From: an uncultured Candidatus Saccharibacteria bacterium
GTDB taxonomy: Bacteria > Patescibacteriota > Saccharimonadia > Saccharimonadales > JAGQNJ01
Assembly: GCA_964590205.1 (NCBI GenBank)
Contig: CAZPVO010000002.1
Location: 1,005 to 65,004, forward strand
Direction of reading: 5' to 3'
DNA length: 64,000 nt
Shown: positions 201-10,973 of the stretch, piece by piece
Numbering within the stretch: the stretch's first letter is position 1
Layout of the letters: each line of letters opens with the position of its first letter
Made by a program: the position numbers and the translations under genes
The notes under the pieces: generated by a model
Seen by the model: only the letters and a program-made list of their open reading frames with translations
Told to the model about the DNA's origin: nothing
The model's database searches: none

Positions 201-314
201 TTACTTGGAGTGGAGAACGCGCAGGTATACGAAAACAATGGCAACCACGATCAGAAGAACCATAAAAATAATCAGCGGAATAAAGCCATATTGGTTTTGC
301 TTAAGTTTTGTCAT
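201..314 (-). CDS. small single-pass membrane protein (37 aa)
   Basis: Own translation: MTKLKQNQYGFIPLIIFMVLLIVVAIVFVYLRVLHSK, with one clear hydrophobic helix. Below the ORF-track size cut-off. Lies in the gap before the GGDEF gene. Confidence 0.3.
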   Translation of the reverse strand: MTKLKQNQYGFIPLIIFMVLLIVVAIVFVYLRVLHSK

Positions 315-365
315 GTTGATATTATTATAGATAGAAAATTAAAAAATAAAAACTTCATTACGCTT

Positions 366-1199
366 ATGATGACTGATGATCAACCCAATACTAACGAACT
401 CCACCGCATCGCCGATATGGGTATTGATATGCCGGCAGATAATGTGTCACCAACTCCCGATCGTTTTGGGGATGGATCAGTAATGGAACAACAGGCATAT
501 GAAATGGCTTTTAGAGGCGCAAAAGCAATTGTTGATGGTATGCAGTCCAAGAAGGAATTGGAACAACTGCAGAGTGAAGGCGAAGAAAAAGACGCCATTA
601 TTGGTTTGCACGAGATTGAAAAAGCAGACCTTGAATACAAGGCAACACACGATCGGCAAACTGATATTTTGAACCGTGCTGCTTTTCTAGAACAAGCCAG
701 TCGTAGGATAGGTCACGTACGGCGACGAGAAGATCGCGGTCGTAAGCATACCCTGGCAATCTGTGATCTTGATAATTTTAAAGGCGTAAATGATACATAC
801 GGGCACAGTGGCGGTGACGAAGTTCTTGATAAAACAGTTAAGGTTCTGGTTTCTCAACTTCATCAGGCCATTCGTGAAGGGCTAATTTCTGACGGACTTG
901 TTTGTCGGTTTGGTGGAGACGAACTTAGTTTACTGCTTCAAGATGCCCCAAGAGAAAGTTCTGAAAAAGTATTAAAGCGAATTCAAAAGCTCGTGAATGC
1001 AATCTCTATTCGAGAAAAAAGAGGTATTGGTCTAACTATTGGCGCGATCGAGGCAGACCAAGGTGCCCGCGTTTCTGATATGCTCGATGAAGCTGACACT
1101 GCGTTATATAAAGGCAAGCGGACAAACGGGAAAAATCAAGTTATATTCGTAAACCCCAATGGTGATGATGAAGATACCGGGCGTCGGCAAGGCGACTAA
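366..1199 (+). CDS. GGDEF-domain diguanylate cyclase (GGDEL variant)
   Basis: [21 protein letters not shown] and [11 protein letters not shown] motifs. Start moved to the ATGATG at 366 because the upstream part of the track ORF is low-complexity and overlaps a minus-strand small ORF. Confidence 0.8.
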
Positions 1200-2308
1200 T
1201 TCCAGAGTTTGCCTTTGTGATTTTCAAATTCTTCGAGTAATTCGCGCTGCTTGCGAGTTAACTTTTGAGGTGTGTCGACGATCACAGTCACAATGTGAGC
1301 ACCGCGATTTTTTGAATTTATGTGTGGTACACCGTGTCCTGACAATTTAAAGTCGGTGCCGCTGTGCGTACCTGTCGGAATTTTCATCGTGACTGGACCA
1401 TCAACTGTGGCGACTTCAATTTCTGTGCCAAGTGCCGCATCAATCATGCTGATGTGCTGTTCGCTCAAAATCAAATCGCCTTCACGCGTGAACTTTTTAT
1501 CCGGCTTAACACGTATATTCACGTACAGGTCACCCTTTGGTCCGTTGGCAACAGCTTCGCCGCGTTCGCGAAGTCGAATTGTTGCACCATCATCAATACC
1601 GGCTGGAACTTTGAGTTTGATTTCTTGTTTCTTAGGCTGAACACCTTTACCGTGACAAACTGTGCAGACTTTTTCAGGAACTTTTCCTGCGCCATGACAA
1701 GTTGGACAAACGCTGGCTTGTTGAATATTCCCAAAAACAGTACGAGTTACTGAAACAACCTGGCCGGAACCTTTGCAGGTTTCGCATGTTTTAAGCTCAT
1801 AACCAGGTTCGACAGTTTTGCCTTTGCAATGTTCGCAGGTGTCTTCAATGTCTAGGTGCAGATCTATTTCGGTGCCAAAAACCGCTTCTTCAAATGTGAG
1901 ATCAACATTTGTCTGTATATCGTGCCCGCGCGATTGTCGCTGATTACCACGACGCCCCCCGCCAAAGCCACCACCAAAAAAGTTCTCAAAAATATCACCC
2001 AGTCCCAGATCACCAAAATCAAAGTGCATGTTCTGTCCGCCGCCACCAAATGGATTACCGCCCGCGAATGGGTTGCCGTCACTGGCCGCAGAGCTCCCTA
2101 CTCCGGCATGACCAAACTGATCATAACGTTGGCGCTTGTTTGAATCTTTTAATACTTCGTACGCTTCATTAATTTCTTTAAATTTGGCTTCGTCACCACC
2201 TTTGTCAGGATGGTGTTCAACAGCAGCCTTGCGGAAAGCCTTTTTGATTTCGTCGGCACTAGCTGATTTACCAACGCCTAAAACTTCGTAATAATCACGC
2301 TTGGCCAC
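1196..2308 (-). CDS. dnaJ: chaperone DnaJ
   Basis: J domain ([10 protein letters not shown]...HPDK), G/F-rich linker and four CxxCxGxG zinc-finger repeats. GTG start at 2308 preceded by AGGAGG; the track ATG at 2362 would add a non-J-domain extension. Confidence 0.95.
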
Positions 2309-2564
2309 CAGAAGCCTCCTGCATAATTTGATCTTCACAAATTTGAAAAGCTCGCTCGACATCTTCTGGCTCGGTTAGAGAATATTTTTCAGCAATATCA
2401 ACTGAGAGATCTGCATGGTCAGTTGTCTCAGCAATTTCTGTTGGTATTAAAAGTGTATAACCAAGGTGCAACCACTCAAGGGTACCTCGAAGTTTCGTAT
2501 CTTGAGCTGCTTCATGAACAGCAATGTCCCTAAACCTGGCTTCAAAATCAATTGCTTCAGCCAT
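2295..2564 (-). CDS. hypothetical acidic protein (89 aa) inside the heat-shock operon
   Basis: ORF starting [11 protein letters not shown]. Overlaps the dnaJ start by 14 nt and the upstream ORF by 8 nt. No family recognised. Confidence 0.45.
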
Positions 2565-2805
2565 TGTTATCTCCACGAATTGCGTCACGAGACATGTCGA
2601 ATACTTGCTGCATTTGATCTTCACTAAGCTCGAATTCAGTTCTTACTGCTTCTGCCATTCCGTAAGCATCCGGCTCATCATCAAAATCCAACCGAATTAT
2701 TTTTTTAATAAATAAGTGTCTGGCTGCTTCTTCAACCCAGTTAACAGTAGCGTCAACGTAGCGCCGTCTTGCTGCATCGTAAGCTGATTCATCAAACTTA
2801 TCCAT
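2557..2805 (-). CDS. hypothetical acidic protein (82 aa)
   Basis: ORF MDKFDESAYDAARRRY..., tightly packed between the SemiSWEET-like gene and the next small ORF. No family recognised. Confidence 0.5.
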   Translation of the reverse strand: MDKFDESAYDAARRRYVDATVNWVEEAARHLFIKKIIRLDFDDEPDAYGMAEAVRTEFELSEDQMQQVFDMSRDAIRGDNNG

Positions 2806-3070
2806 ATATTAATATTCCTACGACAATGCTCATTTGCAAAGTAAACCACAGAATTTGGGTGATCCAAACAGGCTTTAAGTTGTGCGCGATTCCATATGCT
2901 AAAAAGGCAAGCCCGAGTACTGCATATCCAGCCCAGGTAATTATAGAAAGTCCTGCCACACTCTGTGTGCTATAAACTTTCCAAACTTGTGGAACAGTCA
3001 TGAGTGGCTGAAGCACACCAGCCACTAAAGCAATTTTTTCAGTTAGTTTTTTGTAATCGCGCTCAGCCAT
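2798..3070 (-). CDS. SemiSWEET / PQ-loop family small transporter (3 TM)
   Basis: About 90 aa with three hydrophobic helices and a PQ motif (LMTVPQVWKVY). ATG at 3070 overlaps the upstream stop (ATGGCTGA). Confidence 0.6.
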   Translation of the reverse strand: MAERDYKKLTEKIALVAGVLQPLMTVPQVWKVYSTQSVAGLSIITWAGYAVLGLAFLAYGIAHNLKPVWITQILWFTLQMSIVVGILIYG

Positions 3071-3296
3071 TTTGGCATCCTTCAAGTCTGCGACGTACAC
3101 AAATCAAGCTTTCATCAATGTGTCTTGGGTCTACATCCTCAGATGCATATGCTTCTTTCAATTCTGCTTGAGCATCAGGATCGCCCAGAATACTTCTAGC
3201 AATCGTCAGCCCATGTCGCCATGTACTAATGGACGCTCTGGGACTATTCTCACAAAGCGTCCAATATTCACATTCTGAACAAGGGCTTTCAGGCAT
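3063..3296 (-). CDS. hypothetical Cys-containing protein (77 aa)
   Basis: [22 protein letters not shown]... begins directly at the dnaK stop. No family recognised. Confidence 0.5.
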   Translation of the reverse strand: MPESPCSECEYWTLCENSPRASISTWRHGLTIARSILGDPDAQAELKEAYASEDVDPRHIDESLICVRRRLEGCQNG

Positions 3297-5221
3297 TATT
3301 TTTCCTTTTTGTCGTCTGGTTTTTCATCGACGACTTCGCCTTCAACTGGTTCGTCTTTTTTATCGTCGTCCGGTTTTTCATCATCTGAATCGTCTTCTGC
3401 GCCAGCTTCTTTTTGAGCTTGTTCGTACATTTTCGCACCGATTGGCATGAGTTTGTCGTTGAGTTCTTTAGCGGCTGCCTCAAGCGCATCTTTGTCCGCA
3501 GACTCATCAGCCAAAACTTTTTTAGCTGCTTCAACCGCTTCGTCTAACGCCTTTACATCATCTTCACTCAATTTGTCTTTGTTGTCAGTCTTTAGCTTAT
3601 CGGCTTGGTAGACAGCGCCATCAAGTTGATTTCGAACTTCAATGGCTTCACGCTTTTTCTTGTCGTCCTCGGCATGAGCTTCAGCTTCTTTGGCTGCTTT
3701 TTCGATATCGTCTTTACTCAAGTTTCCGCTGTTTTGGATGGTAATACTTTGCTCTTTACCGGTTCCCTTGTCCTTGGCAGTCACATTTAAAATTCCATTG
3801 GCGTCCAGATTGAATGTAACTTCAATTTGCGGCACACCACGTGGTGCTGGAGGAATTCCATCAAGCACGAACCGTCCTAAACTTTTGTTGTCGGCAACCA
3901 TTTCGCGCTCACCTTGCACAACATGAATCTCAACCTGGTTCTGATTATCAGCCGCTGTTGAGAACACTTCGCTCTTAGATGTTGGAATAGTTGTATTGCG
4001 TTCAATCAGTTTGGTGGCAACGCTACCAAGTGTTTCAAGACCAAGACTAAGTGGTGTTACGTCGAGCAACAACACATCTTTAACGTCACCCTGCAATACG
4101 CCGCCTTGAATAGCAGCACCAACGGCAACAACTTCGTCCGGGTTCACACCCTGCTTTGGATCTTTACCAAAAATCTTCTTCACTTTTTCGATCACAGCTG
4201 GCATTCGAGTCATTCCACCAACCAAAATCACTTCGTTGATGTCTTTTGCATCAAGCTTGGCATCTTTCAAAGCTTTTTTGCATGGGTCTTCAGTTTTATC
4301 GATCATGTCTTGCACGAGTTCAACCAATTTGGCACGAGTTAGTTTGTACTCAAAGTGCTTTGGCCCCTCACTATCAGCCGTCAAGAATGGCAAGTTAATG
4401 TCAGCAACTTCAGTAGTAGATAGTTCTTTCTTGGCTTTTTCGGCTTCTTCTTTAAGCCTTTGCATAGCAGCCTTGTCTTTTTTAACGTCAATGCCGGACT
4501 CTTTTTTGAACTCATCCACAAAATGGTTCACTATCTTAAGGTCGAAATCTTCACCACCAAGATGCGTGTCACCATTGGTTGCAAGCACTTCGAACACGCC
4601 GTCACCCAACTGCAAAATAGAAACGTCGAATGTTCCACCACCAAGGTCAAACACGGCAATTTTTTCTTCTTTACCTTTGTCGAGACCGTAAGCTAGTGCA
4701 GCGGCAGTCGGTTCGTTAATAATTCGCTTAACTTCAAGACCAGCAATTTTTCCAGCATCTTTAGTAGCTTGACGCTGGGCGTCGTCAAAGTAAGCCGGCA
4801 CAGTAATGACCGCTTCACTGACTGATTCGCCCAAGAAAGCCTCGGCGTCAGCTTTGAGCTTGCCAAGGATCATAGCGCTAACTTCTTCTGGGCTATACTC
4901 TTTGTCACCCATTTTTACTTTTACGCCATTGCCGCTTTTGACAATTTCGTACGGCATCAGCTCAAGATCTTTTTGAACTTCTTTGTCAGCAAAACGCCGG
5001 CCAATCAGCCGCTTCACACCAAAAATTGTATTTTTTGGATTTGTCACACGCTGACGATTGGCAACTTGACCAACCAAGCGCTCGTTATTCTTATTAATCG
5101 CAACCACACTTGGTGTCGTGCGATTTCCCTCGCTGTTGGCAATAATTTCAGGCTTACCTGATTGCATTACAGCCATTGCTGAGTTTGTTGTTCCTAAATC
5201 AATTCCTATAATTTTTCCCAT
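3296..5221 (-). CDS. dnaK: chaperone DnaK (Hsp70)
   Basis: Full-length Hsp70 signatures ([29 protein letters not shown]), an acidic C-terminal tail, and RBS AAAGGAG upstream. Confidence 0.98.
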
Positions 5222-5236
5222 TGGTTACTCCTTTCG

Positions 5237-5506
5237 TTATGCCATGTCCCATTGATTTTCTAAACTTGCCCTGGCAGCTTGATCTGCAATATCTGCTGCT
5301 ACTTGTCCAAGATATTGTTCGTACTTAAATTGATGGTACGGTGGTAATTCACCTGATGCCATCTTGCGATGATTCTCGGCCATGTTGTCTGAAAAATAAA
5401 CTCCTCCAACGTAAAAGCCTCGAGCAGTTTCTCCACCAAGTCGAACAGGAACACCTTGTTTTATTAATGATGTTTCGGGTTCGGTACTGATTGTTTCCAT
5501 GCTCAT
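5237..5506 (-). CDS. hypothetical protein (89 aa)
   Basis: ORF with a GGAG RBS 11 nt after the upstream stop. Lies between grpE and dnaK. No family recognised. Confidence 0.5.
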   Translation of the reverse strand: MSMETISTEPETSLIKQGVPVRLGGETARGFYVGGVYFSDNMAENHRKMASGELPPYHQFKYEQYLGQVAADIADQAARASLENQWDMA

Positions 5507-5517
5507 GTTATTTCTCC

Positions 5518-5856
5518 TTAATTATTAGGTTCTTCTTTTTCAAGTAAAGATAAAACGCTATTTGATCTTCGCAATGTATAAAATCGAGGGCAGTCGCCAT
5601 TAACTATCGTCGCTGCACATCCTTTGGCGGCTATAATTTGCTCTAAGCTAAACCCTTCTCTCCGCGCAAAACGCCTTGCAGCTTCTTCGCTGACTGCGCC
5701 CTCGGTTCCTGTTAAGTTTGCAATATACTGTGATACTAGAAGTTCACTATCAAGTTCGGTAACTCCAGGATTCAGTGTCTGATTAGCCATAGAGCATAAA
5801 TTAGGGCCACAGTTGTCAGCAACACCCGGACTGTGCAATATATCCGGCCTACTCAT
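5518..5856 (-). CDS. hypothetical Cys-containing protein (112 aa)
   Basis: The ATG at 5856 forms an ATGA overlap with the upstream ORF stop (MSRPDILHSPG...). No family recognised. Confidence 0.5.
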   Translation of the reverse strand: MSRPDILHSPGVADNCGPNLCSMANQTLNPGVTELDSELLVSQYIANLTGTEGAVSEEAARRFARREGFSLEQIIAAKGCAATIVNGDCPRFYTLRRSNSVLSLLEKEEPNN

Positions 5857-6131
5857 TTTGCAACCTCTACTTGTACACGACACTCACCTAGAGCTTGCTT
5901 GGAAACACATACTGAAAGCGCATCTCCAAACTCAGCCCCTTTGTTATTGGCGGCCGCTTGGATGGCTACGAGTAGACTGCAATCATAATCTCTGCCGTCC
6001 TGCGCCAATTGCGGATCAATTTTGCTCCTAGCATCGTTGACCATGTTCAAAAAGTCATCTGGCTCCATTGTTGCTTGAGCCTCATTTAGGTAACAGCCTG
6101 GGCACGGTTTAAATTCAGCTATCGCTTTCAT
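5853..6131 (-). CDS. hypothetical Cys-containing protein (92 aa)
   Basis: Start overlaps the grpE stop by 4 nt (MKAIAEFKPCPGCY...). No family recognised. Confidence 0.5.
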   Translation of the reverse strand: MKAIAEFKPCPGCYLNEAQATMEPDDFLNMVNDARSKIDPQLAQDGRDYDCSLLVAIQAAANNKGAEFGDALSVCVSKQALGECRVQVEVAK

Positions 6132-6598
6132 TTTGCCGACTCCATTTTGACTTTGACCATAGCGTGACGAATGACTTCACCATCAACGACGTAGCCAGGT
6201 TGAAGTTCCTCTGAGACGACTTCAACTGTGCCTTCGCCTTCTTCCATGCCCACTGCTTCGTGCAGGGCAGGGTCAAACACTTCGCCGACAGTCTTAATTT
6301 TGGTCACACCAAGATCTGTTAAAACTTTGTCGAATTGCTTGACTGTACCTTCCACGCCTTTGACATAATCGTTGCCTTCCAGTTCTTTAGGCACGTGCTT
6401 GAGTGCTCGCTCTAAATTATCAATCGCTGGTAAAAGCTCGCGAATTACCTTAGCTTTTACTACATTTTGAAGCGCAGCGTATTGCTCATCGTGGCGACGA
6501 CGGATGTTCTCAGCATCGGCACGTTCGCGCTGCAATGCTTCGGTCAGCTCATCAATTCTGTCAGCCAGTTCTTCAATATCTGGTTGCTTTTTACTCAT
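6128..6598 (-). CDS. grpE: nucleotide exchange factor GrpE
   Basis: GrpE-like coiled-coil plus C-terminal beta domain (LLPAIDNLERAL, FDPALHEAV). The ATG at 6598 overlaps the hrcA stop (ATGAGTAA). Confidence 0.9.
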   Translation of the reverse strand: MSKKQPDIEELADRIDELTEALQRERADAENIRRRHDEQYAALQNVVKAKVIRELLPAIDNLERALKHVPKELEGNDYVKGVEGTVKQFDKVLTDLGVTKIKTVGEVFDPALHEAVGMEEGEGTVEVVSEELQPGYVVDGEVIRHAMVKVKMESAK

Positions 6599-7313
6599 AC
6601 AACGCTCCCTCCAAGGCTTCGCCGGCCTGGCCAACAAGACTCATGACATTGCGATAACTTTGACGGGTTGGACCAAGCACACCGATGTAACTATGATCAG
6701 AGTACGGGCTGCGGAAGCGGCTGATTATCAACGTACACTCAGCGCCACGGCCGATTGGGTTTTCTGAACCAATGTACACACTAAGTGGTTTGTTTGGCGC
6801 AGCTTCTCGTAGCCATGGCTCCAAATTGTCCAGAAGCCTCGCAACCTCCTGGACTCTCGCCGCATTCATAAATTCTGGCTGGTTGAACAAATTACTCAGA
6901 CCACTCATGTATAACTGATTGCCAATCGTGGCAATACCAAGGTTGTGAGTTAGCTCTACCAAAGTTTCGACAGCGTTACGAATAGTTTGCTCAGGCACCC
7001 CTGTGCCTGATACACGTGCTGACAGCGCACGCTCGGCACGTTTTGCTGGAGCAATTTCCGGTTGTTCCTGAACCAAATTTACATAAAATCGATAACCTTT
7101 ATCGGTTGGGATTCGTCCAGCACTGGTATGTGGCTGTTTAATTAAACCTTTTCGCTCGAGTGACGCCATTTCAGCTCTAATAGTTGCCGAACTCACATTA
7201 AAAACTTTGGCCAGCAAACTACTACCAACAGGGGCCGCAACCTCTGCGTATTGCTCGACGATAGCGGCTAGAATTTTTTGCTGACGATCGGTCAGAGTAG
7301 CACTGTTATCCAT
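6591..7313 (-). CDS. hrcA: heat-inducible transcription repressor HrcA (short, 240 aa)
   Basis: N-terminal wHTH LTDRQQKILAAIVEQY...VGSSLLA...SSATIRAEMASLERKGLI..HTSAGRIPTDKGYRFYV. A CIRCE operator lies immediately upstream. Confidence 0.85.
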   Translation of the reverse strand: MDNSATLTDRQQKILAAIVEQYAEVAAPVGSSLLAKVFNVSSATIRAEMASLERKGLIKQPHTSAGRIPTDKGYRFYVNLVQEQPEIAPAKRAERALSARVSGTGVPEQTIRNAVETLVELTHNLGIATIGNQLYMSGLSNLFNQPEFMNAARVQEVARLLDNLEPWLREAAPNKPLSVYIGSENPIGRGAECTLIISRFRSPYSDHSYIGVLGPTRQSYRNVMSLVGQAGEALEGALYE

Positions 7314-7315
7314 AC

Positions 7316-7360
7316 AGTGCTAAGTATAGTGAGTTGGCACTCGCAAGTCAAGAGTGCTAA
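7316..7360 (-). promoter_or_regulatory. CIRCE operator (TTAGCACTC-N9-GAGTGCCAA) plus a third half-site
   Basis: Minus strand reads TTAGCACTC ttgacttgc GAGTGCCAA (7360-7334). A further TTAGCACT arm follows at 7323-7316, 10 nt downstream. Confidence 0.8.
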
Positions 7361-7388
7361 ATCTACCTTGTGGCCAGGTCTTTAACAA
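7360..7388 (-). promoter_or_regulatory. putative sigma-70-type promoter of the hrcA operon
   Basis: Minus strand TTGTTA-N17-TAGATT, abutting CIRCE. The -10 overlaps the stop codon of the upstream 336-aa gene. Confidence 0.45.
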
Positions 7389-8373
7389 CTTTGTAGCTTA
7401 GGTTACGGACTACTTTTGCAAGCGCTTCGTTGCTTGCCGTACCTTCTAAAGGTGCCATTTCTATCTCCTCATAAGGGGAAGTATATTGACCGTAAGCAAC
7501 TTCAGTTACTTGACCATCCACTACTGTTACTGCAGTCTTCCCAAAAGACTCAAGCATCCCAGAACGAGGAAGCTTATATACTTCAACGAGTGCAAATGTA
7601 TCGCGATCACCAGATTCATCATCTACTACTCTTGTATACAAAACGTTAATTGCACCCTTGGTCCTGGTTTTTGAGCTGTATGTCTCTTTCCCATTCTCTC
7701 TATTAAATCGACGAAGTGAGTTAACTATGTCTGCAACGTGCTCTTCATTTTGCATTCGTTGTTTTTCTTCGCGTCTTTCTTGGCGTGTTTGATTGGCCCC
7801 CGTCGCAATAGTTGCCAACTGCAACGCTCTGACTACTCGATCTAGAGGTAATATGCCATGATCTGATTGGTCTTTCCATTCTTCAATACGGTAAGCTGTC
7901 GCTTTTACGCCACGCTTAGTGCCAAAGCGAAAATCGTCAATCCATGAATTATTGTACTCGTAGCTGTGAAGTCCAGTTACTCTCCCGCGTTGTTCATCGT
8001 GCTGTAATACAATCTGAGTGTAGAGCTTATTAGGAATTGGAAAAGCAGTACGCCACACATTTACGACTGTTTTGTCAGGAGTCTTTGACACATGCCCTCG
8101 AATACCGCCCTCTTCATCATCAGTCAACGGTTTACCTTGCCAGTCACTATGAAATGGCCCCTCTGGTAGTTTCATTGTAAGTTCACCCACGCTTTGCCAT
8201 AGATATACAGATCGGGCCTTTTCAATAGCACTTTTTACACCTTGCCAACCCTCAGAAAAGGCTTCTGTGCCGATTGCGATTGCATCCGAAAGCATTTCTG
8301 CGCCAGTGCCTAAAGCCGCAGGAACTGCAACTGCCATTTCACCACCCGCTTCAATCATTGTTTTTGCACTCAT
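7363..8373 (-). CDS. hypothetical protein (336 aa)
   Basis: Long uninterrupted ORF. No family recognised. Confidence 0.6.
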   Translation of the reverse strand: MSAKTMIEAGGEMAVAVPAALGTGAEMLSDAIAIGTEAFSEGWQGVKSAIEKARSVYLWQSVGELTMKLPEGPFHSDWQGKPLTDDEEGGIRGHVSKTPDKTVVNVWRTAFPIPNKLYTQIVLQHDEQRGRVTGLHSYEYNNSWIDDFRFGTKRGVKATAYRIEEWKDQSDHGILPLDRVVRALQLATIATGANQTRQERREEKQRMQNEEHVADIVNSLRRFNRENGKETYSSKTRTKGAINVLYTRVVDDESGDRDTFALVEVYKLPRSGMLESFGKTAVTVVDGQVTEVAYGQYTSPYEEIEMAPLEGTASNEALAKVVRNLSYKVVKDLATR

Positions 8374-8470
8374 ATGATGAGCTTATGGGGTGATCTTTAA
8401 AATTGCAAGCGTGAGCAACATAAAATTTGTATACTTGCGCCCCTGTTAGTCTTTTCGTTATAATCTATCT

Positions 8471-9100
8471 ATGAACGCTCAAGCGAGCAATACGCAAATT
8501 CAATCAATCAAAGAGTGGCTTGGCAATGGATCAATTAATATTTTTGGCCGGCCGTTTGCCGGAAAAGATACTGTTTGTCGAAAATTAGCTGAGGTACTCG
8601 CTGCTGAAATAATCGGTGGTGGCGATATTATGCGCAACACACCCGAATTTGCGGCAACCCAAGCTAAAGTAGATGATGGCAGTCTAGCCCCGAGCGATGA
8701 GTTTCTGCAGATGATTACACCCGTATTTTCAAGAGAAGATCTTCAGGGTAAATCGCTTGTTTTAAGCTCTGTTGGCCGATGGGATGGTGAACAACAAGGC
8801 GTACTGGCAGCAGCTGAAAAGTCTGGACATACAATTAAATGTGTCGTCTATGTTGATATCACGGTAAATGAACTTCACAAGCGTTGGGAAGCTTCACGAC
8901 AACTTGCCGACAGGGGTGTACGAAAAGATGACGATGAGTCAGCACTCGATAAACGCATATCCGAATTCAACAATAAAACAGTTCCTGTTTTGGATTTCTA
9001 TAAACAAAAAGGGTTACTCGTTGAAGTAAACGGCATGAACAGCCGTGAGGAAGTTTTGCAAGAAATTCTAGACAAACTCGTTAGTCGTACTTCATCATAA
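8471..9100 (+). CDS. adenylate-kinase-family nucleotide kinase (divergent P-loop)
   Basis: INIFGRPFAGKDT...LAE.L.AEIIGGGDIMR aligns with the Adk N-terminus (GxPGxGKGT...GD.LR). A TATAAT box lies about 10 nt upstream of the start. Confidence 0.55.
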   Translation: MNAQASNTQIQSIKEWLGNGSINIFGRPFAGKDTVCRKLAEVLAAEIIGGGDIMRNTPEFAATQAKVDDGSLAPSDEFLQMITPVFSREDLQGKSLVLSSVGRWDGEQQGVLAAAEKSGHTIKCVVYVDITVNELHKRWEASRQLADRGVRKDDDESALDKRISEFNNKTVPVLDFYKQKGLLVEVNGMNSREEVLQEILDKLVSRTSS

Positions 9101-9221: not shown

Positions 9222-10973
9222 TTGAGACATTGTAGTGGAGGAGACGTGGCGGAGCATCTAAATGTACCACATGGAGGGAAACTTGTAGATCTGATGGCCA
9301 GTGGATCATCAGCCGCCAAGTTAAAAAAGCAGGCTGTTAATTTCAAAAGTTGGGATTTAACTCCAAGGCAGTTATGCGATGTTGAAATGTTGGTGTCTGG
9401 CGCCTTTTCGCCCCTCACTGGCTTTATGAATAAAAAGGAGTACGAGAGCGTCTGCAAAGACATGCGCTTATCCGACGGCACTCTATGGCCCATGCCAATC
9501 ACGCTCGATGTTGATGATAAGTTTGCCAAGGACTTAAAAAAAGGTGTTCGTGTCGCGCTCCGAGATCAAGAAGGAGTCATCCTGGCCGTGCTAGAAGTTG
9601 GTGATGTGTGGAAGCCAAACAAAAGTAAAGAAGCGAAGTCAGTGTTCGGTACAAATGATCAAAATCACCCAACCGTGCAATACTTGCACCACAAATCACA
9701 CGACACATATGTAGGCGGCAAAATAACTGGGCTAGAGCTACCTCGTTACTACGACTTCAGTGAACTGAGATATACGCCAGTCGAGCTTCGCGAACATTTC
9801 AAGAAGCTGGGCTGGACCAAGGTAGTGGCCTTTCAAACCCGAAACCCTATGCACCGAGCACACGTTGAATTAGCACTTCGGGCAGCAAAGCAAACGCAAG
9901 CAAACCTACTCATACATCCGGTTGTGGGTATGACAAAACCGGGAGACGTTGATCATTACACACGTGTGCGAGTCTACCAGGCAGTCCTAAAGAAGTTCCC
10001 CAAGTCCACGGCTATGATCTCGCTTTTGCCGCTCGCCATGCGCATGGGTGGCCCGCGAGAAGCACTCTGGCATATGATTATCCGCAAAAATTATGGAGTA
10101 ACTCATTTTATTATTGGCCGTGATCATGCCGGACCGGGTAAAAACTCAAAAGGTAATGATTTTTATGAACCATATGATGCACAGCAACTGGCAGCCAAGT
10201 ATGCCAAGGAAATAGGTGTAAAGGTAATTCCCTTCCAAATGATGGTGTTCGTACCAGAACATGACGTGTACATGCCAATTGATGAAGTTCCTGATGGAGC
10301 GGAATATCTGAGTATTTCGGGAACTGAACTCAGGGCAAGACTCGCTGATGGTCGGCCATTGCCAAAGTGGTTCACCTACCCCGAGGTGGAAGTAGAGCTT
10401 CGCAAAACCTATAAACCGCGACCCAAACAAGGCTTGGCAATATTTTTCACCGGCCTTTCTGGTGCTGGAAAATCGACAATTGCCAATGCCTTGATGGTAA
10501 AACTTATGGAACAAGGAAAGCGAACTGTGACGCTGCTTGATGGTGATCATGCCCGCAAGCATCTGTCCTCAGAACTCGGGTTTAGTAAAGAGCACCGAGA
10601 TCTTAACGTAGCACGAATTGGCTTCGTAGCGAGTGAAATCTCAAAGCATGGCGGAATCGCACTCTGCACCCCTATCGCACCCTACGATAAAATTCGCAAA
10701 AAGGTTCGTACCATGGTTCGAGAAAGTGGCGGAAACTTTGTGCTGGTATATGTCGCGACACCGCTCGAAGAATGTGAAAAAAGAGATCGCAAAGGTCTCT
10801 ATGCAGCAGCACGAACTGGTAAGCTCAAAGCATTTACCGGAGTTTCCGACCCTTACGAGACTCCGGCCGACGCCGAGCTAGTGCTTAATACTGTTGGCTT
10901 TAGTCCTGACGAACTGGCAAACCGCATCTTGCTGTATCTCGAAAAAGAAGGTTTCTTGGAGACTACAACATAA
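9222..10973 (+). CDS. bifunctional sulfate adenylyltransferase / adenylylsulfate kinase (PAPS synthesis)
   Basis: ATP-sulfurylase motifs FQTRNPMHRAH and IIGRDHAGPG. C-terminal APS-kinase motifs FFTGLSGAGKST and LLDGDHAR. The exact start is uncertain (ATG 9222 or nearby GTG). Confidence 0.9.
   Translation: MRHCSGGDVAEHLNVPHGGKLVDLMASGSSAAKLKKQAVNFKSWDLTPRQLCDVEMLVSGAFSPLTGFMNKKEYESVCKDMRLSDGTLWPMPITLDVDDKFAKDLKKGVRVALRDQEGVILAVLEVGDVWKPNKSKEAKSVFGTNDQNHPTVQYLHHKSHDTYVGGKITGLELPRYYDFSELRYTPVELREHFKKLGWTKVVAFQTRNPMHRAHVELALRAAKQTQANLLIHPVVGMTKPGDVDHYTRVRVYQAVLKKFPKSTAMISLLPLAMRMGGPREALWHMIIRKNYGVTHFIIGRDHAGPGKNSKGNDFYEPYDAQQLAAKYAKEIGVKVIPFQMMVFVPEHDVYMPIDEVPDGAEYLSISGTELRARLADGRPLPKWFTYPEVEVELRKTYKPRPKQGLAIFFTGLSGAGKSTIANALMVKLMEQGKRTVTLLDGDHARKHLSSELGFSKEHRDLNVARIGFVASEISKHGGIALCTPIAPYDKIRKKVRTMVRESGGNFVLVYVATPLEECEKRDRKGLYAAARTGKLKAFTGVSDPYETPADAELVLNTVGFSPDELANRILLYLEKEGFLETTT

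Follow-up and report, generated by a model that had tools for sequence, protein, structure and literature searches.

Small, rapidly replaced genes in putative accessory slots of the HrcA/CIRCE heat-shock operon of Saccharimonadales

In a 64-kb window of a Saccharimonadales genome (TM7; candidate phyla radiation, CPR), which is the whole stretch of DNA analyzed here and the source of all coordinates unless a locus is named, the heat-shock operon hrcA-grpE-dnaK-dnaJ is interrupted by seven small open reading frames (ORFs). The interpretation that we favor, and to which we assign a probability of about 70%, is that the operon, which would be controlled by HrcA and the controlling inverted repeat of chaperone expression (CIRCE), contains slots for accessory genes that are expressed by read-through and translational coupling, and that turn over through cassettes bounded by repeated ribosome-binding sites (RBSs) and through homologous recombination anchored in the chaperone genes. 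The seven ORFs would accordingly be accessory genes in two variable slots of a class I heat-shock operon, one between grpE and dnaK and the other between dnaK and dnaJ. They would be transcribed from a single CIRCE-flanked promoter upstream of hrcA, with no promoter of their own, and translated by termination-reinitiation coupling across overlaps of 1, 4, 8 and 14 nucleotides (nt). Turnover would probably follow two routes. In the first, 'ORF plus RBS' cassettes would be gained or lost precisely when the near-identical RBS-spacer-ATG sequences in front of successive genes recombine; the second would be homologous recombination anchored in the conserved grpE, dnaK and dnaJ, which would import diverged alleles together with their neighbors. 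The products would most likely be dispensable, lineage-specific small cytosolic proteins that are co-expressed under stress, and this is the weakest step of the scheme. Our comparisons show that the contents of the slots turn over much more quickly than the chaperone genes on either side, and that the slots carry both indel and mosaic patterns.

The ORF list and the sequence together gave eleven consecutive genes on the minus strand, in the order hrcA, grpE, three ORFs of 92, 112 and 89 amino acids (aa), dnaK, four ORFs of 77, 90, 82 and 89 aa, and dnaJ. The product of hrcA (6591..7313) is 72-82% identical to the HrcA of most related loci, which carry the Pfam HrcA domain, and grpE (6128..6598) overlaps hrcA by 8 nt. 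ORF1 (5853..6131; 92 aa, acidic, with the cysteine pattern CxxC...Cx8C) begins in an ATGA overlap with the grpE stop, and ORF2 (5518..5856; 112 aa, acidic, four cysteines) in an ATGA overlap with ORF1. ORF3 (5237..5506; 89 aa, acidic) is preceded by the RBS AAGGAG and dnaK (3296..5221) by an RBS of the same AAGGAG type. Downstream of dnaK, ORF4 (3063..3296; 77 aa, acidic, CxxCx5C...Cx7C) starts in a 1-nt TAATG overlap at 3296, and ORF5 (2798..3070; 90 aa, a PQ-loop/SemiSWEET-family membrane protein), ORF6 (2557..2805; 82 aa, isoelectric point (pI) 4.4) and ORF7 (2295..2564; 89 aa, pI 4.2) each overlap the preceding ORF by 8 nt. Finally, dnaJ (1196..2308) has a GTG start, an AGGAGG RBS inside ORF7 and a 14-nt overlap with that ORF. 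An earlier, sequence-only reading of this DNA had listed the ATGA overlaps at 6128-6131 and 5853-5856, the 8-nt overlaps at 3063-3070 and 2557-2564 and the 14 nt into dnaJ; all of these are present, and a third 8-nt overlap, between ORF5 and ORF6 at 2798-2805, was absent from its list. Its description of several ORFs as acidic or Cys-containing likewise held, in that six are acidic (pI 4.2-4.9) and ORF1, ORF2 and ORF4 have five, four and five cysteines, respectively.

Inspection of the sequence showed an RBS and a coupled junction at every small-ORF start. Same-strand ORFs of at least 70 aa cover 97% of the grpE-dnaK gap and 100% of the dnaK-dnaJ gap. When each gap was shuffled 2000 times with its dinucleotides preserved, coverage averaged 7-8% and never rose above 74%. 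As no shuffle reached the observed value, the tiling by ORFs is far beyond chance.

A pattern search with the CIRCE consensus TTAGCACTC-N9-GAGTGCTAA detected exactly two CIRCE-like elements, where 0.01 would be expected by chance, and both are placed directly upstream of hrcA; no further CIRCE was found anywhere in the 64-kb window. The first of these (7334..7360, minus strand; TTAGCACTC-N9-GAGTGCCAA) has one mismatch, and its 9-nt spacer holds the -35 hexamer of a sigma-70-like promoter. This promoter (7323..7351, minus strand; TTGACT-17-TATACT), assigned by consensus match, agrees at 10 of 12 positions and is the best such site in the range 1000-8600. The second element (7297..7323, minus strand; TTAGCACTG-N9-CAGTGCTAC; three mismatches) directly follows the -10 hexamer and spans the hrcA start codon, such that the tandem pair, spaced 37 nt start to start, brackets the promoter-like site. 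No convincing promoter was detected inside the operon, and sites resembling promoters or terminators are no more frequent than in shuffled sequence; the minus-strand terminator candidates within it amount to one weak 5-bp stem inside dnaK, a count below the shuffle expectation. A search against Rfam recovered no structured RNA in the operon region and only three distant tRNAs in the window. Thus hrcA, grpE, dnaK and dnaJ lie on one strand with no convincing internal terminator, as in a class I operon. Given that the CIRCE pair and promoter lie only upstream of hrcA, that no convincing internal promoter or terminator is seen, and that the junctions are coupled, it is plausible that the eleven genes form one HrcA/CIRCE-repressed unit. 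This supports, at the level of sequence, the proposal of the sequence-only reading that the inserted genes are co-regulated by HrcA and CIRCE. A CIRCE precedes hrcA in 66 of 70 related loci, and tandem HrcA operators seem to be the rule in Saccharimonadales. Tandem pairs also occur directly upstream of dnaK in loci L004 (10755/10802), L039 (10902/10950) and L061 (13209/13256).

A scan with the GrpE of the window, taking one genome per species, gave 80 loci, nearly all from Candidatus Saccharibacteria/Saccharimonadales, in which we mapped hrcA, grpE, dnaK and dnaJ. The closest locus (OZ246406.1; L083) belongs to a sister species and shares 91% identity in GrpE and 92% in DnaK. The grpE-dnaK gap has a median length of 377 nt, exceeds 200 nt in 52 of 71 loci and reaches 2.8 kb, and the dnaK-dnaJ gap has a median of 582 nt, exceeds 200 nt in 45 of 56 loci and reaches 3.6 kb. 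A third, smaller slot was noted between hrcA and grpE, where the gap is longer than 200 nt in 20 of 70 loci; in L094 a 113-aa ORF (179-520) lies at this position. Among the 57 operons with both gaps measurable, 51 contain one or more inserted ORFs of at least 50 aa; the median is three, most species have one to eight, and the seven of the window are the second highest number. In all slots, neighboring genes frequently overlap by 1, 4, 8 or 14 nt, and across 102 gaps the mean coverage by ORFs is 0.89 on the same strand versus 0.49 on the antisense strand. Small-gene interruption of the grpE/dnaK/dnaJ gaps is thus an order-wide property of Saccharimonadales. The sequence-only reading had set the interrupted operon against the contiguous order of most bacteria: the operons from outside Saccharibacteria in our result set are indeed contiguous, but the interruption is not peculiar to the genome of the window.

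The slot families that recur include the Pfam families CutA1 (11 loci), NYN (5 loci) and Transgly_assoc, the last a membrane protein, as well as SemiSWEET, a 52-aa membrane peptide and two large proteins without known function. One of the large proteins, a polytopic membrane protein, has about 960 aa and is encoded in the dnaK-dnaJ slot (L011, 12861-15791; L013, 12981-15896; L070, 2682-5552), and the other, of 626-680 aa, lies between grpE and dnaK (L051, 2960-4840; L057, 11115-13001; L061, 11170-13212); neither has a Pfam match. We compared slot ORFs of 60-160 aa, the window excluded, with small ORFs that the same calling procedure gave for the rest of each locus. Acidic proteins (pI <5.5) without a hydrophobic segment make up 87 of 121 slot ORFs (72%) versus 25 of 217 controls (11.5%), with an odds ratio of 20 (Fisher p = 7e-30), although the mechanically called controls may include spurious ORFs, which counts against our interpretation in that the effect size is approximate while its direction is robust. 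Slot occupants are hence predominantly small, acidic and soluble proteins that are probably helical.

Beyond these recurrent families the slots show little continuity. In an all-against-all BLASTP comparison, 295 gap ORFs fell into 255 components, 238 of which are singletons. The sister species carries in its grpE-dnaK slot two ORFs of 75 and 74 aa that are unrelated to those of the window, and after dnaK three ORFs of 86, 144 and 84 aa, a SemiSWEET and a further 84-aa ORF; only the SemiSWEET (87% identity) and the last 84-aa ORF (30% to ORF6) correspond to genes of the window. A finer view is offered by L082 and L083, two conspecific strains of the sister species with flanking DNA that is 95-99% identical. 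The 74-aa ORF of the grpE-dnaK slot is present in L083 and absent from L082, and a 149-aa gene upstream of hrcA also differs between the two by presence and absence. In L083 the 74-aa ORF is bounded by AAGGAGAAATAATATG and GAAGGAGAATAATAAATG, and in L082 dnaK follows the first copy without a break. As the break of this indel is exact, the unit gained or lost is 'ORF plus next RBS-ATG'. ORF3 of the window is preceded by the nearly identical AAGGAGAAATAACATG, and the repeated RBS-spacer-start sequence is a likely recombination substrate.

The same pair of strains displays a second kind of change. They share only 51-89% identity over a block that starts midway in the last slot ORF and takes in the whole of dnaJ, and synonymous sites of dnaJ are saturated, whereas dnaK has a synonymous divergence (dS) of 0.27. 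The hrcA of the sister lineage (L083, 5497-6213) is about 50% identical to that of the window and stands beside a grpE that is 92% identical. These disparities argue for allele replacement inside the operon: for the divergent dnaJ block, homologous recombination that broke within the operon is indicated, and the sister-lineage hrcA looks like a replaced allele with its breakpoint at the hrcA/grpE boundary. An hrcA fragment in L094 (3-182) has 38% identity to the window, and the adjacent grpE is 79-92% identical across the sister lineage. A ComEC-type competence gene is found nearby in the sister genome.

Between the two strains, the ratio of nonsynonymous to synonymous divergence (dN/dS) of the slot genes ranges from values of strong constraint to relaxed ones: 0.04 for the 75-aa membrane ORF, 0.08 for the SemiSWEET, 0.13 for the 144-aa ORF, 0.34 for the first 84-aa ORF and 0.63 for the 86-aa ORF. 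The last 84-aa ORF is a mosaic with 48% aa identity. Gene remnants are also present in slots, in the form of a 41-aa C-terminal SemiSWEET fragment in L032 and a split copy in L023.

Gain and loss of single ORFs has a cassette-like appearance, and hypervariable, strain-specific small acidic proteins are typical of anti-defense loci. One might accordingly regard the inserts as the cargo of a phage, of an integron-like cassette array or of an anti-phage or anti-defense island that entered the operon, but we consider such an origin highly improbable. We found no integrase, transposase or attC-like inverted repeats, short repeats are at chance level (1100-7500), no recombinase lies in or beside the operon, and no match in PHROGs or PADLOC is significant. 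As the ORFs overlap, there is no room for attC sites; furthermore, the GC content of the inserted region is continuous with its flanks, and every ORF has the orientation of the chaperone genes and is coupled with them.

Six of the seven ORFs of the window (ORF1-4, ORF6 and ORF7) gave no significant hit against Pfam, NCBIfam, PHROGs or PADLOC (in PADLOC none at E <= 0.1; in PHROGs the best at E 0.022 over 13 residues), as expected from the sequence-only reading, which recognized no family for them. They have no paralogue elsewhere in the window, and in a collection of 15 billion proteins each is the sole member of its cluster at 90% identity. Concatenated, the six ORFs did not retrieve even themselves in a word-indexed search, which was hence uninformative; the valid test was an exhaustive HMMER search of ORF1-ORF4, concatenated, against 1.84 billion representatives, which recovered the four self-hits as positive controls. 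This search detected P0010 as a homologue of ORF4 (60% identity, E 8e-24), P0013 of ORF1 (39%, E 2.4e-5), and P0011 (50%, E 1e-5) and P0014 (46%, E 1.8e-4) of ORF3. P0012 was not counted as a homologue, being a repeat protein of 544 aa whose match to ORF1 extends over 35 residues. In all three retrieved contigs the homologue occupies the same slot as the window ORF: P0013 and an 87-aa ORF lie between grpE and dnaK, whose products are 79% and 93% identical to those of the window, P0011 lies in the order hrcA-grpE-P0011-dnaK, and P0010 in the order dnaK-P0010-dnaJ. A third member of the ORF1 family, L047_g1, is the first ORF after grpE in L047.

For the ORFs of the window we used the ratio of nonsynonymous to synonymous differences per site (pN/pS) rather than dN/dS, the distant homologues being saturated and no close strain carrying these ORFs. 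The ratio is 0.55 for ORF1, 0.43 for ORF3 and 0.38 for ORF4 (pS saturated at about 0.8, pN 0.31-0.43), as compared with 0.13-0.22 for the flanking grpE and dnaK, a pattern that marks the three ORFs as coding and under weaker purifying selection than the chaperone genes. In a codon log-odds score trained on the long ORFs of the window, ORF3, ORF5, ORF6 and ORF7 fall inside the distribution of true genes and above every spurious overlapping ORF. Conservation as open frames in close relatives, which the sequence-only reading had offered as a means of refuting its claim, gave a divided picture: the closest relative is without five of the seven ORFs and has other ORFs in the same slots, but rare homologues of ORF1, ORF3 and ORF4 occupy the same slots elsewhere with pN below pS. 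Against this background one can ask if the ORFs are genes at all, or merely chance open frames in expanded intergenic DNA. The codon scores of ORF1, ORF2 and ORF4, which are marginal or ambiguous, and the lack of a family match for six of seven would be compatible with the latter. However, a tiling that shuffles never attain, an RBS and coupled junction at every start, same-slot homologues with pN below pS, and the strand asymmetry of coverage across the gaps make this the least probable of the explanations that we considered; it could apply to ORF2 alone and is strongly disfavored for the other six. Six of the seven ORFs are thus supported as genes by independent lines of sequence evidence.

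ORF6 and ORF7 stand out for their fidelity to one slot. ORF6 has matches among the ORFs located after the SemiSWEET in the sister species (E 3e-8 and 1e-6), both ORF6 and ORF7 match the sister-strain ORF preceding dnaJ (E 3e-8 and 2e-4), and phmmer searches with ORF7 matched ORFs directly upstream of dnaJ in L022, L009 and L016. An iterated profile converged on a set of 14 ORFs. These come from 10 operons and invariably lie between dnaK and dnaJ, the last copy usually overlapping the dnaJ start; besides slot ORFs that were already known, a profile search with the family alignment retrieved one candidate, the 90-aa protein P0020. Members share a C-terminal motif of approximately [FY]-x-[LIM]-[STD]-x-x-[ED]-h-x-x-A-h-x-h-C-x-[DE]. 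On the basis of these matches, ORF6 and ORF7 are paralogues in tandem that have diverged, and their family is confined to the slot between dnaK and dnaJ. A direct repeat with the core GAAGATCAAAT (coding strand) is found at 2326-2349, 2612-2635 and 5560-5583, near the 3' ends of ORF7, ORF6 and ORF2. It encodes the conserved E-D-Q-I/M of the ORF6/ORF7 motif and is read in a different frame in ORF2; it could be a remnant of duplication followed by frameshift, or a chance occurrence.

Among homologues, four cysteines are conserved in ORF1 and all five in ORF4, and the arrangement of an N-terminal CxxC with a C-terminal Cx7-8C would suit metal binding. A single Cys family of ORF1, ORF2, ORF4, L006 and L058/L062 was considered and rejected; profile searches found no link between them, and CxxC...Cx7-8C is a likeness at the level of pattern only. 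AlphaFold2 models of ORF7 (four helices; predicted local distance difference test (pLDDT) 72, from an 8-sequence alignment) and of ORF4 (helical; pLDDT 70, from two sequences) are of moderate confidence, and neither matched a fold in the PDB at E <= 1.

The remaining insert, ORF5, is hydrophobic and basic, unlike its six acidic companions. It matches the Pfam PQ-loop family PF04193 with 27.4 bits (gathering cut-off 22; E 2.9e-6), and its best match among the NCBIfam models SemiSWEET_1/2/3 is SemiSWEET_3 (E 1e-16; 60.9 bits, below the cut-off of 100); it thus belongs to the superfamily and to none of the three curated NCBIfam subfamilies. Residues 8-88 align full-length with residues 13-95 of the Vibrio SemiSWEET 4QND (E 1.1e-13), and 9KON, a 'Sugar transporter SemiSWEET', is also matched (E 2.8e-11). 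The PQ motif lies in the first hydrophobic segment, with P27-Q28 of ORF5 in 'MTVPQVWKVY' aligned to 'TMPQLYKLY' of 4QND. In the HMMER alignment W46 is aligned with the Trp of 4QND and N64 is one position off its Asn, a pair that we take to be sugar-site residues. Taken together, these matches bear out the PQ-loop/SemiSWEET call of the sequence-only reading.

The homologue of ORF5 in the sister species is, as noted, 87% identical and strongly constrained. Homologues are located in the dnaK-dnaJ slot of the window, the sister species, the genome of P0024 (70% identity, with an 8-nt overlap with dnaJ), L054, L023 and L032. Homologues of 61-63% identity (P0027, P0029, P0031) are placed in unrelated neighborhoods, and a 45%-identical one in an archaeal context. 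Since the 61-63% homologues sit elsewhere in their genomes, the linkage of SemiSWEET to heat shock is lineage-specific and not family-wide. The location in a heat-shock operon appears confined to the closest relatives (70-87%) and a few distant lineages, and it gives no ground for regarding SemiSWEETs as stress proteins in general. The sugar-transporter-like gene that the sequence-only reading thought unexpected under heat-shock control is therefore of the SemiSWEET family as proposed, but its linkage to the operon is restricted to some lineages.

The position-faithful families raise the possibility that the inserts are dedicated partners of the chaperones, that is, lineage-specific co-chaperones or regulators that bind GrpE, DnaK, DnaJ or HrcA and whose place in the operon provides stoichiometric co-production. 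The ORF1 family is always first after grpE, and the ORF6/ORF7 family keeps to the slot before dnaJ; cysteines are conserved in ORF1 and ORF4, the slot ORFs are strongly acidic, the models are compact and helical, and DafA (PMC3727329) and HagF (bioRxiv 10.1101/2025.05.30.657042) provide precedents, to which CbpM may be added. For such partners, persistence would be expected next to the conserved DnaK and DnaJ, yet most slot ORFs are singletons. Moreover, two of the sister-strain slot ORFs have dN/dS of 0.34-0.63, no sequence or fold similarity to known co-chaperones was found in Pfam, NCBIfam or a PDB fold search of the ORF4 and ORF7 models, and the unrelated SemiSWEET, CutA1 and NYN occupy the same slots. 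The extreme turnover, the presence of six insert-free operons and presence/absence within a species argue against an obligatory partnership with the chaperones, and we consider dedicated partnership of the inserts in general to be unlikely. Under the accessory-gene interpretation some products may nevertheless act on GrpE, DnaK or DnaJ, with the position-faithful ORF1 and ORF6/ORF7 families as the best candidates. A role as co-chaperones or stress factors, as the sequence-only reading had suggested, may be proposed from operon position, which is the one feature that ties the products to the chaperones.

At the other extreme the inserts might be translated spacers, with selection acting mainly on an open, coupled stretch of DNA by which ribosomes remain on the transcript and dnaK and dnaJ escape polarity, and with nearly useless, acidic and soluble polypeptides as the least harmful filler. 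This would suit the almost complete tiling of the gaps by same-strand ORFs despite a near-total lack of sequence conservation, the pervasive overlapping junctions, the orphan status and marginal codon score of ORF2, the relaxed selection on some sister-strain ORFs and the decayed SemiSWEET remnants that are kept as short ORFs in L032 and L023. The dominance of singletons, the empty operons and the within-species presence/absence also fit. It is at odds with pN clearly below pS in ORF1, ORF3 and ORF4 and with their conserved cysteines, with the gene-like codon usage of ORF3, ORF6 and ORF7, and with slot genes that are strongly constrained (dN/dS 0.04-0.13) or belong to known functional families. 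In addition, operons with gaps of 2-30 nt exist, so that no spacer is needed. We regard filler as an unlikely explanation of the inserts in general.

Several points weigh against the accessory-slot interpretation or limit its reach. Co-transcription and translational coupling are read from the sequence, and the recombination mechanism is drawn from one pair of strains and from patterns of divergence. A separate CIRCE stands in the gap just before dnaK in 32 of 70 related loci, frequently in two tandem copies some 47 nt apart, and 8 loci have a CIRCE upstream of dnaJ. Because of these extra elements, many relatives would have two or three CIRCE-controlled units where the window has one; a single operon is hence not universal in the order, though the window is without an internal CIRCE. 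The codon scores are marginal for ORF1 and ORF2 and ambiguous for ORF4. ORF2 has no homologue beyond itself among the 1.84 billion representatives, and as an orphan it draws its support from length, tiling and coupling. Finally, the survey covers the heat-shock operon, and such slots may not be specific to it.

In the immediate neighborhood, an ORF resembling a GGDEF-type diguanylate cyclase (210-1199, plus strand) faces dnaJ in convergent orientation, with a 4-nt overlap at the dnaJ stop. The sister species has a GGDEF gene after dnaJ on the same strand, so that the neighbor has been retained with a changed orientation. On the other side, a 336-aa ORF (7363-8373, minus strand) has its end just before the CIRCE and promoter sites. 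In the sister species this place ahead of hrcA is held by other genes, namely gmk and the 149-aa ORF. Farther away, a 583-aa ORF (9222-10973, plus strand) reads by eye as a fused ATP sulfurylase and adenosine 5'-phosphosulfate (APS) kinase, with the P-loop FFTGLSGAGKST in its C-terminal part; if so read, it would be a remarkable piece of metabolism for a CPR genome of reduced size.

Few gene clusters of bacteria are as well conserved as the Hsp70 operon. The components of the present system, namely the class I heat-shock operon, SemiSWEET and accessory hotspots flanked by core genes, are known. We found no description of the slot architecture in full-text searches on dnaK/hrcA or SemiSWEET in Saccharibacteria and on small ORFs of dnaK operons. 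As far as we could find, then, it is their combination that is new: order-wide, hypervariable and acid-biased small-protein slots inside an Hsp70 operon. In a whole order of reduced-genome CPR bacteria, the junctions of this operon would be sites from which small proteins are expressed and soon exchanged for others; 72% of these proteins are acidic. The system allows one to ask how orphan small genes arise, spread and meet selection, if conserved genes anchor the recombination of accessory DNA in naturally competent symbionts, and if Hsp70 has lineage-specific small modulators beyond DafA, CbpM and HagF. For the last of these, the ORF1 type after grpE and the ORF6/ORF7 type before dnaJ provide a shortlist of position-faithful families. 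The slots are valuable mainly because they are tractable and supply candidates; a new mechanism is not what they demonstrate. Even if the inserts are mere hitch-hikers, there is a practical consequence, namely that these small ORFs should be annotated as genes in Saccharibacteria and assigned no function from operon context alone. A bolder proposal, to which we give little credence, is that the slots are a recombination-fed nursery of fast-evolving small acidic and Cys4 proteins that act directly on the Hsp70 machinery or its repressor. Were it true, the products would be strain-specific modulators like DafA, CbpM or HagF, or decoy clients, and would represent a hypervariable, previously unrecognized class of Hsp70 co-factors; by tuning proteostasis, they could change the stress and host-attachment behavior of these ultra-small episymbionts.

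Several known systems may be compared with the slots. The hrcA-grpE-dnaK-dnaJ operon of Bacillus subtilis continues with three more genes after dnaJ. The window resembles such Gram-positive class I operons in gene order, with hrcA first and a CIRCE within one mismatch at the promoter, and the co-transcription of extra, non-chaperone genes thus has a precedent. It differs in that its extra genes lie between the chaperone genes and not after them, are very small, coupled and mostly of unknown family, and vary from species to species and even from strain to strain. In this variability the slots are similar to the 'islets' of pangenomes, with which they share conserved flanks, variable content, within-species presence/absence and mosaic alleles; unlike these, they lie inside a tightly coupled essential operon, and their cargo consists almost entirely of ORFs of 50-150 aa with no mobility genes. 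ORF5 resembles the SemiSWEET 4QND in its length of about 90 aa, its PQ motif, its end-to-end alignment and its above-threshold match to the Pfam PQ-loop; it differs in its scores below the NCBIfam SemiSWEET cut-offs and in a heat-shock-operon placement limited to some lineages.

Among modulators of the Hsp70 system, CbpM of E. coli is encoded next to a J-protein and modulates that co-chaperone. HagF of Chlamydia, a modulator of HrcA, has three modeled domains spanning at least 242 residues and is encoded at a separate locus (bioRxiv 10.1101/2025.05.30.657042). The inserts are like these two in being lineage-specific and either heat-shock-controlled or beside a J-protein gene, as would befit modulators of a regulator or co-chaperone. 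HagF differs by its three domains and separate locus from the small ORFs inside the operon, and no ORF of the window matches a Pfam family other than PQ-loop (ORF5), hence there is no match to a CbpM-type family. DafA is encoded among the genes of a dnaK system and produced together with their products. It forms a DnaK3-DnaJ3-DafA3 complex in Thermus thermophilus (PMC3727329). Compared by description and not by sequence, DafA is conserved within its genus whereas the ORFs of the window turn over between close relatives. It is nonetheless, like the ORFs of 77-92 aa that are coupled here to grpE, dnaK or dnaJ, a small lineage-restricted protein from within a dnaK cluster, and as such it is the closest precedent for what ORF1, ORF4, ORF6 and ORF7 might be.

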